Below, one piece after another: positions 40,794 through 64,000 of a stretch of 64,000 nt of DNA (positions are counted from its first letter, which is position 1; every line of letters starts with the position of its first letter). Made by a program: the position numbers and the translations under genes. The DNA is from Sphaerodactylus townsendi (Eukaryota), in NCBI RefSeq assembly GCF_021028975.2, contig NC_059428.1, positions 42,036,001 to 42,100,000 of the forward strand, given 5' to 3'. A model generated the notes under the pieces. The model was given only the letters and a program-made list of their open reading frames with translations, did not search any database and had not been told where the DNA came from.

Positions 40794-46208
<5,415 letters not shown>

Positions 46209-46519: not shown

Positions 46520-57128
<10,609 letters not shown>

Positions 57129-57331
57129 GTAAGAACTGCATATCTCAACCATAGCAAATGAGTCATTCTCTAGGTACCTTTTTCAGAGAGATCAAAATAA
57201 AGCTGAAAGAGAAGCACAAATAGCTATCACTGCAGTTTTTAGTTTCATATTTATATCCATAAATAGGAGGGGGAGCTGTGTATACGCACTGGCACAAAAC
57301 AGATGCCAGCTGTAAAATTCCAAAAAGAAGA

Positions 57332-57807
57332 TGTAGTCGTGACCGCGAGGTCAGCGCAAGAATGAGACGAGACCGCTTCGAATGAGACGAGACTGGTGGA
57401 GAGTGCCAGCAGCGGGAGCGCGGGTGTCCGTGTTCCTAGCGACTCTCCCGCGTGCTGGTTCCTGGCACCTTTTATTATGATTCTAACGGGGGCGTGTAGA
57501 AGGGCGGAACGGGGGGGATTCCGGGAGAGCGGGAGAGCGGGAGACTGAGAGATCATCATGTGATGCATGATCTCATCTGGCTGCTACGTGCGGAGAGGAG
57601 CATCAGCGTCTGGGCCTAATCCTCACCTGGGGGCAAGACCATTGTCCCTTTGTCCGGGACACCCGGTGGTTGTGAGCCAGGTAGTTCATGACCTGTGACT
57701 CATCGGGGGATGAGGGGTGTAGGCGCGGTGCGACCAGAAGGCCGTAGGAGCGCCGGTGTGCCAGCGCTCTACTTACGGTGCTGCTGGGTCAGCAGTGCAT
57801 CCCTACA
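57332..57807 (-). repeat. ERV 3' LTR (476 bp)
   Basis: TGTAG...CTACA termini; preceded on the minus strand by polypurine tract AAAAAAGGAGGAGA (~57808-57821). Confidence 0.95.
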
Positions 57808-57825
57808 TCTCCTCCTTTTTTACAT

Positions 57826-59357
57826 TTAGAAGGGAGGCCGAAATGCTAGGGGGCGATTTAAGGGGACGCTCGTCTCCTCCGCCGTTTGGCCAAGCTGGCC
57901 GAGCTGCTTGTGCAACATTAGAACTTGGTTGCGATGTAAGGGAAAGTCGAGGGGTTTCTTACACATGTTACAGGCAATATTAGGTATACATTGAATGAAA
58001 CAAGATCCGACGATGAGGCACACAATCAAACCAATGCAGAGCTGTACAATAACACTTAACCATCCCCCCAGTAGCCAGCTCCAAAGGGCTGACCACCAGT
58101 GGGGCAAAACGTCATACTTCAGATTAGATACAACATCTTGCAGTTCACGCACTTTCATATGAATCAAATGGGAATTATCAGAAAGATTAAAACAACACAT
58201 ATCATGTACATTCTCACAACCTTGGTGATGCAATAACAACAACTAATCAATAGCGATTATCTAAAGTCGCTTGACAAAGTTCCTGCTGCTCGGAGGCCAG
58301 AGCATCCAGAGCAATGGAGGTGGAGTTGATGGACTTCACAAGGGCACAGGCCAGCCAGCCAATGGTCTTAGCGTTGTAAGAAGCGAGTCCGGGGACTCCC
58401 ACTAGGGAAGTCGCGAGGGAGACGAACTCCGCTTCGGAGAGGGCAACCGCGTTGCTCCGGCAAGAGGGGTCGAGGGGCAGAGTGGAGCGGCGGCGACGGC
58501 GTCCGGGCTCCCAGGGTGGAGCCTGAGGCAGGACGATGGTGAGGCGGCTAAGGCAACAGAGAGTCCCGGCAGAAAGCCGAGCAGGAATGTAGTTGAAAGT
58601 TCTCTCCCCGCAAGTCCAGAACCAACCCTTGGGGAGCAAGATATTTCCATACATGGGGGGAATGTCCTCCATGCGCATGCAGTTCCAGTTGGCCGAGCCG
58701 GTGAATGGGCCCGGGTCAGTCTCTCGTCTTGCCGCGCCGGCAATGCGGGCGCAAGTATTGGACTTGTGATTGGCGACAGTCTTGGTGATGAGGGAGAGAG
58801 CGCCAGCCGGGAGGGTTTGGACTACGGGTCCCCAGTCAGCACTCATAGAGTACTTGATGGATGAAGCATTCATAAAGGGGCTTAAACCAGACTCCGCTAG
58901 GAAGTCTCCAGGGGCTTTGCAGACGGGGAGCAGGCAGGAGCTTAGCAGGCTCCCGACTCCTAGGTATTGGCCCAGGCAGAAGGACGAAACGTTGGCAGCG
59001 GCAGCAAATTGCTTCCAGATGTTGGTTTGGTCAAAGCTCGTCAGGGGGTGGCCGACTGCCACTGGCAGGAGGCAGCAGAGCAGGCAAAGGATGGTGGCCG
59101 CCGAGTTGGCAGTGATGATTGCAAAGAGGGCGGCACAGAGGTTCTCGGGCGTCTCGGGCTTGCTGGCGCAGCAGCTCTTGAGCTTGGCTGGCGGTTGCTT
59201 TGACATTCCCCCAGGTCATCCGGGTCCTTGGACCGTCTGGGCGTCGGTGGCGGCGTTCCCGTTGAGGCCGCTGGACGGGATCCTCCAGAGAGATGCGTTC
59301 CATCTCCGGGATGGGGTTGTTTTCCTCCTGGTGCCATTCCATGGGCTGGCCCGTCAT
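57826..59357 (-). pseudogene. env: ERV env, ASLV(alpha)-type SU/TM with long signal peptide; two lesions (~59160, ~58250)
   Basis: NIWKQFA...SFCL...SCLLPV, LPKGWFWTCGERTFNYIP, furin RRRRRS, internal fusion loop, LACALVKSINST, ISD remnant ATLDNR, CENVHDMCC (CX6CC), membrane span. Confidence 0.88.
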
Positions 59358-60430
59358 GGCGAGTCGGGATCTACTGGAGATCTGTAGGAAGAAGGACTGA
59401 AACACACCCCCTTCCCCAGGTTATAGGAGGGGGCCGGATCCTGCCAGGCTTGGAGAGCCGATGGCGGGAGGTCAAAATCAAGTTTTGTTGGATTTAGTGT
59501 TTGATATAAGACGACTATATACGAAGGCTTATCTTGCAGCCTGCGTAAGGGTTGCTTCTAATGCAGTCTACTGGGGGCCGCCCACTCCTCTTTCTTTAAA
59601 TTGTTTGACAGGAAGGGCAGAGGGTAGGCGATCCTGATGGAAGCTGGCTTCAGAGCGTCATCAGGGTGCGTCAAAGCGAGGGTCCGAGCCTCGAGGGAGG
59701 AGGGGGCAAGCGGACCCTGGGGGAATTGTGGGTATGCATGCTAAATTTGCAACACAAAAGAGGGCTTGGATGCGCTTTTGGGTGGTGGATGCATCCAGGA
59801 GACAAAGCAATTAGGCGATTAGGGGTGAATTTCACACACAAAAGGGGGAGGGGGTATTTCTTTGCAGGGAAAATATACTTACCGTGACCTTGGTGGTTAA
59901 CGCCGAGAGGCTGGAAATGGTGCTGAATTTGTAATCAAATTATCTTGGGGAATTGCCACCCGCCGAAACCGCTCCTTAAGGGGCGGCTTCGGCCAAGCGC
60001 CTGGCCTTGCACACTGTGTTCATACAGCCGCCAGGCGCTGGGCAACCACAACCCACACAGGTTATGTGTGAATTTGGTGCGGCAGCATCCCCTTGACTAG
60101 AGGCCTGCCCTGGCCGCCGAAACCATTCCTTAAGGGGCGGTTTCGGCTAAGCGCCCTGGCGATGGTAGCCACAAGCCAAACAGGTTTGTTAGGGGCATAG
60201 TGGCGGCAGCCTCCTTTTTAAACTGGGGCCTGTCCTGGCAGTGCTGCGGTACCAGGACGGGCCCAGATTTTAATCCAGGGAGGGCCAGTCAGCCAATTGG
60301 CCCTCCCGCTTTGCTGGTTGAAAAAATAGAGGGAAGAGAGAAGGAAAAAAAGGGGGGGAATAGTTTCCTTGCGGAAGTTCGAAAATGAGTTCAGAAGGCA
60401 CAATTAGGATCAATAATCTGTGTGATGGGT

Positions 60431-61203
60431 TTATCCATCCCAGACTAGGGTCGTTTTGACCTGGCTCATGAGATCCCTTCCCCAGAGATTGACATGGATG
60501 TCCAGAATGATGGGGCGGACTGTGAGCTGCCGCTCGAGCCCTGGGCTATGGACCGTGAGCGGGCGGATGCTCCGTCTTACGGTTTGTTTTCCCCCCACCC
60601 CCCAGATGTGCGGACAGGTCTCGGTTGGCCACTGGTCAGGCCACTCGGCTGCTCTGATGACGGTCACATCAGCACCGGTGTCCACCAGGCCCTTGAACAG
60701 ACACCCCTCCACGGTGAGCTCCAGATATGGGCGGGAGCTTCCGATGGGTGTCTCCACCGCTGCGATGGTAGTACTGGCTGCGCCCTGATGGCTGCCGGGG
60801 CTTGTGGCCTTTATTGCGTTGATGGCGGGCAGCGCATGGGGCAGGAGGATCAGCTGTGCGCAGCTGGTTCCGCTGGGCAACTCCTGCGGGATGTTCGTCC
60901 AGACTTGGAGATGGATGGGTCCCTGGTGCGTGGAGTCGATTACTCCGGGGACGATGAACAATTCCTGTTCAGCGGCGGAGGCCTTTGGCAGCACCAGCCC
61001 AATGGTCCCGGTAGGGATGGGGTCGCCATACTGGGTTGGGGCGACGAGGACCTCGTGGGGGAACTTGAAGGAGATGGGCTGGGTGCACGTGAGCGAGATG
61101 CCACGAGAGGGGGTGGTTTGGGTGTGGGTCTTGGTGTTTGGGCCTGTTCTAGTACTCTCCTCCTTGGTCCTGGGCTGGGGAGATGCCCGGGCGCAAGTTT
61201 CCC
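60431..61203 (-). pseudogene. pro: ERV pro: degenerate dUTPase-like domain plus aspartic protease
   Basis: PGVIDSTHQG and CAQLIL (dUTPase motifs 3/4), LVDTGADVTVI and LWGRDLM (protease); slippery GGGAAAC at 61197-61203. Confidence 0.88.
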
Positions 61204-62676
61204 GATGGGCAGTCGCTTCTCCAGTGGAAGCCTCTCTGGCACCGGGGGCATCGGGTTTTTGGCAGCCTCGGGGGCCTTCGTCTCTTGGGGGAAGACCCTC
61301 CTCCATCGGGATTGTAGGCCCCCCCGCCGGGCTGCCTACACTCCCTCCGGAAGTGTCCTGACCTGCCGCAATTAAAGCAATCATCCTGGGGCTGTCCCCT
61401 GGCGGTGGAGAGTGCTGCGGCGAGAAGGCTAGCTTGGTGGGCGGAGGATCCGATGTCCTGGCAAGCCTTAAGCATGTCGGTCAGTTCAGGATCTTTGCCT
61501 AGGCCCGTCATTGCTCTGCGGCACTCAGTGGAGGCGTTCTCCTTGGCGAGGCGCATGAGGAGCTCGTTTTGGGCCTCCTCGCTATCTACCTGCCTCTTGA
61601 GAGCCTCCTGGAGCCTGTTCACAAATTCAGCGTAGGGCTCTTGGGGTTTTTGCCGGATGGCGGAGAAACTTTGGGTTGGCTGGCCGGCATTGGGAACCTT
61701 GATAAACGCCTTGTAGGCGCATTCAGAGGCGACCGTAAGGGTGGCCTCTGGCAGAACAATCTGATCGTTGGGGTTGGCGAAGGCATCAAAGCCGTAAAGT
61801 TGCGCGGCGGTGTAGGCGCCGCCCGATGGCGGCTCCCCTAGAGACATTGCTGGCGGAACTCGCTTTCCTAGATCACATATTGTGCAGGGCTCAAAAGCAT
61901 GCGAAGGTGGTCTTCCAGTCATCCGGAACCATTAGGTGATTCCTTGCGACTGCCTCTAGCATGCCTCTCACATAGGGCTGGTGACTCCTACGTCTCGCAT
62001 CGCTTTGCGGAGCTCGGTGAGGATGTTATAGCCTAAAGGGCGGTACTCGACAACCTGCCGAATAACGCCATCCTCCCCTCGGTATCCGTGAAGTGAACGG
62101 GGCATAGAGCGAGGATATCGGCATCGTCTTCCGTCAGGGTTTCCTTTTTTCGCAGGTCGTGGCTAATACGTTCTGCGAGGGTTTTGAAACCCGCGCCATT
62201 ACGTGGCGCTGACGGAGGTGCTATGGCTTCAGAAAATGAAGGCGGAGCAAGGGGAGGCGGCCGAGCCGCGGGAGAATTTGAGGGAGGCAGGGGAGCAAGG
62301 GGGGCAGAAGGAGGACAGGCGTCCAATTTAGAGGATAGAGAAAATTCCAGGGGTGAAACTGAAGTTGAAAGATCGAAAGGAGGGCGGCCTACAGCAAGGG
62401 AGCCATAGGTCTGCAGGCTGATGGCGACATAGCATTGTCTCCACGTCAGTAGCAGTGACACCGGCGCGCGAGGCTCTGTGTGAAGAGTGCGCCCGATGTT
62501 TTCCCAATCCTTAAGATTCAATGTCCCCCCCCCTCCGGGTACCATGGACATTGAGCTTCAATCTCCTCAACCAATTTGCGCAGCTCCCCTCTCTTTACGG
62601 GCACCCTGCCGCGTTTCGCTAACGCTTTTAGTTCGTTAACGTGCTTGTCATAACCCCTGCTTTTGCAAGCTCCCAT
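61149..62676 (-). pseudogene. gag: ERV gag (several 1-nt frameshifts)
   Basis: MGACKS myristoylation start, CPWYPEGGTLNLKDWENIG matrix, two PSAP late motifs, MHR IRQKPQEPYAEFVNRL, two CCHC knuckles CFNCGRSGHFRREC and CPRCQRGFHWRSDC. Confidence 0.9.
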
Positions 62677-62847
62677 ACTTACCGGTGTTCCGTCGGACGA
62701 GAGAGTGTCCTAGGACTCGGGTCCCTGGATGTGCTGATCCAGCGGACGGGCGATACCAAAGGTAAGTCCCTGGATGCGACGATCCAGCGGACGTCGGTAC
62801 CGCGGCCCTTTCCCAGGCGACGGTAAGCAGGGTGGAGGTTCGAGGAT

Positions 62848-62865
62848 TCCCGGGTTTCGGCACCA
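62848..62865 (-). promoter_or_regulatory. Primer-binding site complementary to tRNA-Phe(GAA)
   Basis: Minus strand TGGTGCCGAAACCCGGGA, the complement of the vertebrate tRNA-Phe 3' 18 nt, 3 nt inside the 5' LTR. Confidence 0.92.
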
Positions 62866-62868
62866 GCT

Positions 62869-63338
62869 TGTAGTCGTGACCGCGAGGTCAGCGCAAGAAC
62901 GAGACGAGACGCGGTGATAACATCTGGTGGAGAGTGCCAGCAGCGGGAGCGCGAGTGTCCGTGTTCCTAGCGACTCTCCCGCGTGCTGGTTTCTGGCACC
63001 TTTTATTATGATTCTAACGGGGGCGTGTAGAAGGGCGGAACGGGGGGAATTCCGGGAGAGGGGGAGAGCGGGAGACTGAGAGATCATCATGTGATGCATG
63101 ATCTCATCTGGCTGCTACGTGCGGAGAGGAGCATCAGCGTCTGGGCCTAATCCTCACCTGGGGGCAAGACCATTGTCCCTTTGTCCGGGACACCCGGTGG
63201 TTGTGAGCCAGGTAGTTCATGACCTGTGACTCATCGGGGGATGAGGGGTGGGGGCGTGGTGCGACCAGAAGGCCGTAGGAGCGCCGGTGTGCCAGCGCTC
63301 TACTTACGGTGCTGCTGGGTCAGCAGTGCATCCCTACA
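62869..63338 (-). repeat. ERV 5' LTR (470 bp)
   Basis: TGTAG...CTACA termini; direct repeat of 57332-57807. Confidence 0.95.
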
Positions 63339-64000
63339 AGAAGATATGTTTAGGGGATATTAAAAGTGGTTTTCCCAGAAGACTCAGGGTCATTCTGTCA
63401 GACAGATGCAATTTCTATAATTAAAATATAAAGTTCCTTTCCATATAGGTGCATATCCTAATCCTTATCTAACTCTCATAATTATCCCAATTAATGGTGT
63501 GTCCTTACAAAACCCTGTTTAAGTTGATCCCTTTGGGGATGAGGCGGCCTATAAGTTTCATTAATAAATAAAAATAAATAAAATAAATAAATCCCAAATA
63601 TCCACATATTTTGATGCCTCTTTTCCAGGTTAAACAGTGATATCAATTTGTGCATTTGAGCTGTGGTCCGTGATTGTTTTATGGATCAGATATATTTACA
63701 TTCAGTTAATATTGTTAGAGCTAAGAGTTTTAGAATAGTTTGTGTTGTATGATCACAATGGCCATTTTTCCCATTAAGTAATGGCACATCCTTGATAGGC
63801 AACTGTCAAGAATATTTTGATTATATGTTGCTCTCTGTTAGGGCATGTAGTTGGGTTAGGTCTGGGAATCAGTTTATGTTAACATTTGTAGCGGTAGCTT
63901 GCTATCTGTGCACCTGTGACATTGTGTAGCTTTGAGGAATGCAGAGCAGCTGATAGCAGATTTAAAAACCAGAAATCAAAGGAGAGCCATGAGTGCAGGT

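Follow-up and report, generated by a model that had tools for sequence, protein, structure and literature searches.

Alpha-type envelopes are known well beyond birds. According to the available text of PMC13568524, they occur in lizards, geckos, turtles, crocodilians, amphibians and mammals, and the Mabuya-like envelopes among them are ubiquitous in reptiles, with gecko and Caretta loci listed. Endogenous retroviruses (ERVs) that pair a beta-type pol with an alpha-type env have been described in caecilians (PMC12690878, 10.1101/2024.07.05.601823), and beta-related ERVs are documented in squamates and turtles (PMC6001957). As both the alpha-type env outside birds and the caecilian pairing had already been reported, the surprise at meeting such an envelope on a beta-like core in a gecko is smaller. 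A search of the literature within reach, weak in that it took in few subscription journals and supplements, found no report that joins the core described here to this envelope in reptiles, and the available text of PMC10152393 and PMC10536682 held nothing further on the pairing.

We analysed a stretch of 64,000 nucleotides from Sphaerodactylus townsendi (contig NC_059428.1, positions 42,036,001 to 42,100,000; hereafter the window), in which a preliminary description had placed an envelope of the avian leukosis type on a betaretrovirus-like backbone. Our reading, to which we assign a probability of about three in four, is that the window holds a defective and young provirus from a reptile class II lineage that is itself old, with a beta-like core and a Mab-Env3-like alpha-type envelope.

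The envelope resembles Mab-Env3 and Mab-Env4 of Mabuya (PMC13568524, 10.1101/2021.11.05.467493) in its clade, compact SU, Cys-flanked fusion peptide and CX6CC motif, whereas the signal peptide of Mab3 is short, without a match to the leader profile presented below, and the window copy is broken. For the Mabuya-like group, the available text of PMC13568524 assigns gamma or ERV-L backbones to the bat-related clade and mentions none of class II for reptile members. The caecilian ERV-AB-Mun, compared by its description, is similar in having a class II backbone with separate gag, pro and pol and an alpha-type env, but its host is an amphibian, and it is intact, with pol present and LTRs of 325 bp. 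The Env of ASLV (ALV/RSV) shares the order of the TM motifs and gave the best PDB match, but the SU of ALV is much longer, its Env lacks the leader and falls in a separate clade, and Pfam Avian_gp85, which reached 254 bits in the ALV-like protein P0083, had no match in the window. ASLV also lacks a dUTPase, which was found in 0 of 34 alpha ERVs (PMC1224870), and Alpharetrovirus proper carries its protease in the gag frame without a dUTPase, whereas the dUTPase-PR of the window lies in another frame. HERV-K(HML-2), MMTV and JSRV are alike in their beta-like MA, NC and dUTPase-PR and in a long signal peptide, where a TW..K helix comes after a basic stretch, but their TM is beta-type, with neither ISD nor CX6CC; many mammalian betaretroviruses also have a G-patch, unlike the window. 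PyERV (python) and TgERV-F (songbird) likewise carry an env of the covalent type on a non-mammalian class II backbone (PMC3758190, PMC10536682), but that env is of the mammalian gamma type, and PyERV lacks a dUTPase.

The provirus and its gag-pro core

The provirus lies on the minus strand and spans 57332-63338 (6,007 bp). Its 3′ LTR (57332-57807, 476 bp, with TG...CA termini) and 5′ LTR (62869-63338, 470 bp) enclose all parts, and the 6-bp target-site duplication that had been proposed was found as AGAAGA at both flanks (57326-57331 and 63339-63344). The duplication had also been taken as a beta-like feature, and this use was dropped: ASLV, MMTV and HERV-K each generate duplications of 6 bp, so the length does not separate beta from alpha. 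The polypurine tract (57808-57827, minus strand) overlaps the env stop. The primer-binding site (62848-62865, minus strand), 18 nt long and 3 nt from the LTR, was identical at 18 of 18 nt to an oligonucleotide complementary to human tRNA-Phe(GAA).

The LTRs differed at 8 of the 456 nt compared (1.8%), plus one 14/20-nt patch. The sequence of this patch is unrelated between the copies (57373-57392, 20 nt, and 62910-62923, 14 nt), and the patch in the 3′ LTR duplicates the sequence immediately preceding it. At an assumed neutral rate in reptiles of 1-3 × 10^-9 per site per year, the LTR divergence would correspond to an insertion age of roughly 3-9 million years.

The insertion is antisense within an intron of a host gene for an LRR protein, which we take to be CEP97. 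Exons of this gene were seen on the plus strand at 52477-52644, at about 55190-55291 and in a third exon whose end lies some 200 bp ahead of the 3′ LTR; an Atlas search with a host exon returned generic LRR names only. The same region holds a MITE-like element of 1.3 kb (50230-51562) with terminal inverted repeats of about 100 nt and internal repeats of about 390 nt in both orientations, and short palindromic elements with arms of 50-78 nt (43219-43591, 54578-54681 and 55867-56090), which are probably non-autonomous DNA transposons. When sequencing runs were searched, 11 of 13 rows contained part of 57826-61900, and nine rows, from five organism codes and four studies, had a share of at least 0.2. 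RNA runs carrying this interval were absent from the rows listed, and the search is uninformative on expression. Scans of IMG/VR and of metagenomes found no relative, and an Rfam scan of the provirus gave no match.

The gag gene (61149-62676, minus strand) is spread over several frames. It opens with MG at 62676, stops at 61149 and encodes a beta-type MA, a CA and two zinc knuckles by Pfam. MA scored 25.2 bits with Pfam Gag_p10 (cut-off 23.9) and matched 8c9m, presumably HERV-K Gag, and MPMV MA (E 0.002), while no ASLV MA was among the 12 matches of the window MA. The zinc knuckles reached 25.8 bits with zf-CCHC and 25.1 bits with zf-CCHC_5, slightly below the cut-off of 27 for the latter. The best match of CA-NC was again 8c9m (93.7), followed by HIV. 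With MA and CA-NC both scoring best with HERV-K/MPMV, the view of gag as beta-like was upheld.

Past the second zinc knuckle lies the slippery heptamer GGGAAAC (61197-61203, minus strand). The heptamer is present at 61203, where one would be expected and as the preliminary description had it, but its −1 frame does not lead into the dUTPase, and a further frame change falls between 61197 and 61117, ahead of the dUTPase. Pro is therefore broken too.

By Pfam and alignment, pro (60431-61117, minus strand) encodes a degenerate dUTPase and then a protease with DTG. The dUTPase is N-terminal to PR, in a frame separate from gag, and this position is beta-like, as had been noted. The best score of PR was 68.8 bits, with MPMV PR; ASLV-type PR gave 37-42 bits and monomeric HIV PR about 30. 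A G-patch at the end of Pro was absent from the window and from the turtle rows and present in P0022-P0024. The dUTPase itself (60800-61117) has an altered motif 3, as in the gecko model P0026, and is missing the C-terminal Gly-rich motif; turtle relatives retain both motifs. Activity of the dUTPase was possibly lost at the level of the lineage.

Database relatives of the dUTPase-PR numbered 12, namely seven sea-turtle models (40-44% identical), one gecko model and four others. The nearest piece, from a gene model of Sphaerodactylus, covered 25% of the dUTPase-PR at 73% identity. In a tree of 12 rows, the window grouped with the gecko (99/97) beside the turtles and apart from the G-patch-type rows (100/99). 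Avian alpha-beta intermediates, too, are marked by a dUTPase-Pro that lacks the G-patch (PMC1224870; Jern 2005), so the sequence comparisons assign the core no further than beta-like class II.

About 1 kb (59400-60430, minus strand) separates pro from env. Pfam searches in three frames found no RT, RNase H or integrase in this interval, and tblastn with two avian class II pol models gave a best score of 26.9 bits versus a maximum of 27.3 bits in 100 shuffles. Apparent RT-start and integrase motifs at 59340-60430 were discarded as no better than shuffles. The interval contains two 42-nt repeats (59960-60001 and 60114-60155, in the region 59900-60260) in a stable fold; they are 154 nt apart, and each is a hairpin whose arms resemble the primer site and the complement of that site (tRNA-Phe acceptor-stem-like, 9 nt). 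The repeat region folded with z −4.8 and −4.4 on the two strands, and another segment, in gag, with z −5.2; as the scores are alike on both strands and a comparable value occurs in gag, they are not taken as evidence for an RNA element. At 1.8% LTR divergence, remnants of pol would still be expected in the copy, so the loss of pol would have preceded integration.

The envelope, its leader and its relatives

All env motifs are on the minus strand, and the full alpha-type set is present in a broken gene. The interval first given for env, 57826-59206, was too short, the start lying upstream at about 59342. The gene is frameshifted within the signal peptide, after which 58253-59188 encodes the end of the signal peptide, SU, the furin site, the fusion peptide and the HR1 sequon. 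The ISD lesions (58243-58252) follow, and 57826-58242 encodes a C-terminal TM piece with the end of the ISD, CX6CC, HR2, membrane anchor and tail. The SU motifs that had been noticed were recovered, with NIW at 59023, FCL at 58981, CLLPV, and LPKGWFWTCGERTFNYIP...CCLSRLT from 58636. The furin site RRRRR lies at 58501-58487 (residues 239-243), and the fusion peptide downstream of it is bounded by Cys at 58462 and 58348. The first of these (C252) is nine residues past the cleavage site and the second is C290; both are invariant in 12 of 12 alignment rows. Next comes LACALVKSINST, after the fusion peptide and before the broken ISD, and the sequon at the start of HR1, N297-S-T, lies at 58327, its N and T invariant in profile A1. 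The ISD remnant was likewise confirmed, interrupted by a frameshift (about 58250) and an in-frame stop (58243-58245). Directly after the ISD, HQGCENVHDMCCFNLSD carries CX6CC at 58218-58192 (C333-X6-C340-C341 in a read-through with X at the frameshift and the stop). SU is compact, about 185 aa, and residues 56-240 of the read-through contain no CXXC/CWLC isomerase motif. The env fits the definition of the avian gamma-type (alpha-type) Env in the available text of PMC3758190, in which a Cys-flanked internal fusion peptide begins about nine residues past the cleavage site. The relatives of env reach E 1.5e-93, so the motifs are not due to chance. This copy of the provirus is broken and makes neither Gag-Pro nor Env now.

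Pfam found no env family in the env pieces of the window or in the read-through, and a PDB sequence search with SU alone gave no match. A predicted structure covering SU and the first part of TM (pLDDT 78, pTM 0.62) was searched against BFVD folds, and the top three matches were EAV-HP (E 9.9e-6), an echidna ERV and ALV ev/J (5.6e-5), so two of the three were avian alpha Env. In the PDB, the fold match of the predicted SU model was filovirus GP1. By VIA-align, GP1 reached Z 6.5 (rmsd 4.2, 112 aligned) with syncytin-2 tied at 6.0, both below the threshold of 8. A GP1-like fold of SU would agree with 10.1101/2021.11.05.467493.

For the TM alone, a PDB sequence search gave 32.6 bits for ASLV TM versus 30 for full-length syncytin-2. 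Profile A1 scored 81 bits with ASLV TM, 46 with filovirus GP2, 28.4 with the syncytin-2 ectodomain, 25.6 with an MLV-related protein and 21.8 with 4jf3, and no beta-type TM was recognisable among the 57 PDB matches listed for it. The order of motifs is as in ASLV Env, as had been claimed, with ASLV TM the best PDB match. Mab3 was 44% identical to the window Env, Caretta P0027 43% and Elgaria P0002 46%; among the 11 first relatives of this Env, lizards, a snake, a turtle, a caecilian and a rabbit stand at 39-46% and one bird at 30%.

The env profile search returned 1,338 proteins at E 0.001, of which the best 150 were used; protein names were determined for 30 (26 env, 4 pro), including Mab3 and ALV Env. 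The TM tree was built from the 77 rows covering TM, out of 166 env proteins. It placed the window inside a 21-row set with Mab3 (support 98/91), and a split of 100/99 separated the Mab3 set from 43 rows with ALV and all seven named birds. When the window was forced to the avian/ALV side on TM alone, the grouping was not rejected (p-AU 0.139), whereas it was rejected in the SU+TM tree of 28 chosen named rows (p-AU 0.00175). Among the starred sets of the latter tree that span at most half of its rows, none contains the window, and finer placement is unsupported. The trees lacked a true root and any outgroup of the gamma or beta type, and gamma, beta, ASLV-core, PyERV and filovirus sequences were in none of them, so comparisons with these are score rankings only. 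A special closeness to ASLV was rejected on the SU+TM result, and the reptile envelopes are nearer; by these alignments the env belongs to the Mab-Env3/4-like reptile group and not to the avian/ALV group. An alpha-type env on a beta-like backbone was thus retained from the preliminary description, while the label of ASLV type in the narrow sense gave way to the Mab-Env3/4-like clade. An ordinary gamma or beta TM with a congruent Gag/PR was not obtained, as TM scored best with ASLV and the core with HERV-K/MPMV. The Mab3-like clade also holds lagomorph proteins named syncytin, P0007 and P0209 (rabbit, hare), at about 40% identity.

The env leader (59154-59342, minus strand) is a basic N-terminal extension of about 60 residues in a frame that differs from that of SU, with the frameshift near 59170. 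It reads MxWH..NPIP, an Arg-rich stretch and TWGxxK, and was found at E 1.3e-9 by a profile of the leaders of six relatives from which the window was excluded. Among 211 proteins and six window frames, the other matches of this profile were turtles, lizards, one further env and one pocket-mouse env, and neither ALV Env nor Mab3 matched. The leader is carried by envs of Mauremys, Podarcis, Sceloporus, Anolis and Caretta, and the basic cluster is present in the window leader and in five of the six relatives. Pfam HERV-K_REC matched five of seven leader-bearing relatives (E 1.6e-5, 4.9e-4, 0.019, 0.075 and 0.14), all under the cut-off, with a best score of 25.3 bits in a relative versus 27.5; P0020, P0027 and the window's own leader had no Pfam match to HERV-K_REC. 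By these scores the leader weakly resembles HERV-K Rec. An Atlas search with the leader returned only sub-0.9 TLV_coat clusters. Ahead of the leader, a pyrimidine tract and CAG at 59382-59400 (minus strand), in a TWGRG-like stretch whose resemblance to an integrase end was not significant, form the probable splice acceptor of env. In the available text of PMC9967133 and PMC2649029, a long basic signal peptide is a betaretroviral trait and those of ALV and MLV are short. The signal peptide of JSRV regulates RNA (PMC3185594), and that of HML-2 is described as without export activity (PMC2649029). No report of a reptile leader of this kind was found in the literature within reach, a weak result as most subscription journals lay outside it. 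A rodent env model, P0058 (Perognathus longimembris, XP_048220100.1), has a weak leader match, an alpha-like TM and, inside SU, an immunoglobulin-domain match (Pfam E 2.7e-4, under the cut-off).

Origin of the pairing and its meaning

The linkage of core, leader and envelope was seen in other reptiles, in automatic gene models (spliced chimeras) and not in genomic DNA. The Caretta model P0027, which represents a cluster of seven turtle proteins, aligns with the dUTPase-PR, leader, SU and TM of the window in that order. Models P0020 and P0021 join dUTPase-PR to the leader, and the gecko model P0026 has pieces of dUTPase and of SU together. As judged from these models, the pairing of core and env is common to turtles and squamates, and since the sea-turtle models join the same dUTPase-PR, leader and env, an old reptile lineage is indicated and not a one-off recombinant. 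The models P0139 (swallow), P0160, P0172 and P0077 fuse gag or pol domains to an alpha-like TM and show that a class II core with an alpha-type env is present on the avian side too.

A recombination in this host lineage alone, in which a beta-like virus recently took up a Mab3-like env, would account for nearest env rows (Anolis, Elgaria, Mauremys, Mab3) that differ from the nearest core rows (gecko, sea turtles), and env exchange is common in the group (PMC13568524, PMC12690878). The mismatch is uninformative, however, because the core and env rows were sampled from different proviruses, and the leader is shared by the envs of Mauremys, Podarcis, Sceloporus, Anolis and Caretta, with the Caretta model tying it to the same core; we regard such a recent event as improbable. 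An artefact of assembly, either a chimera of two elements or an intact element with frameshifts from sequencing errors, has in its favour one gag frame change at a homopolymer run (about 62525). It is very improbable, given that a single LTR pair with perfect target-site duplication, primer-binding site and polypurine tract encloses all parts, that pieces of the core and of env are found together in gene models from gecko and turtle, and that errors cannot account for the missing pol.

Somewhat more plausible than either, but still unlikely, is a basal alpha/beta intermediate near the ASLV ancestor, in which core and env were inherited together without an env swap and ASLV later lost the dUTPase and the leader. 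The caecilian ERV-AB-Mun, with pol and env both nearest to alpharetroviruses and a separate pro kept (PMC12690878), points this way, as do the dUTPase-Pro without G-patch of avian alpha-beta intermediates (PMC1224870) and the window core and env, each about 43% identical to turtle relatives. The scores of MA, CA-NC and PR, higher for HERV-K/MPMV than for ASLV, argue against it together with the SU+TM rejection of an avian/ALV grouping, and the env group moves freely, being found on gamma, epsilon and ERV-L backbones too (PMC13568524, PMC12690878, 10.1101/2024.07.05.601823).

Under the preferred reading of a defective class II provirus with an exchanged envelope, the parent virus would have used −1 frameshifting for Gag-Pro and a spliced mRNA for Env, as in known families. 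Furin would have cleaved Env, SU would have been disulfide-linked to TM via CX6CC, and fusion would have proceeded by the Cys-looped internal fusion peptide, as in ASLV and filoviruses. The leader would belong to the class II backbone and have been retained when the ectodomain was exchanged, since it has no match in relatives that share the env clade (Mab3, rabbit, rattlesnake). If pol was replaced before integration, the copy would have been mobilised in trans by a helper.

As a dead pol-less insertion, the window copy itself adds little beyond flagging the family, and the parts worth following are the leader and the linkage between turtles and lizards. Reptiles join the hosts in which a beta-like core is found with an alpha-type env, a pairing that we otherwise found described only for caecilians, and the intact turtle and lizard relatives could serve to test the alpha/beta split and how signal peptides of the Rec/Rem/Rej type originated. 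A tentative extension, which we consider possible though not probable, is that an undescribed class II lineage with a working Rec/Rem/Rej-type signal peptide on an alpha-type env is widespread in lizards and turtles. If so, the signal-peptide RNA regulator of betaretroviruses would predate the mammalian beta-type envelope and be independent of it, and the reptile class II lineage would be the best living model of the alpha/beta split.
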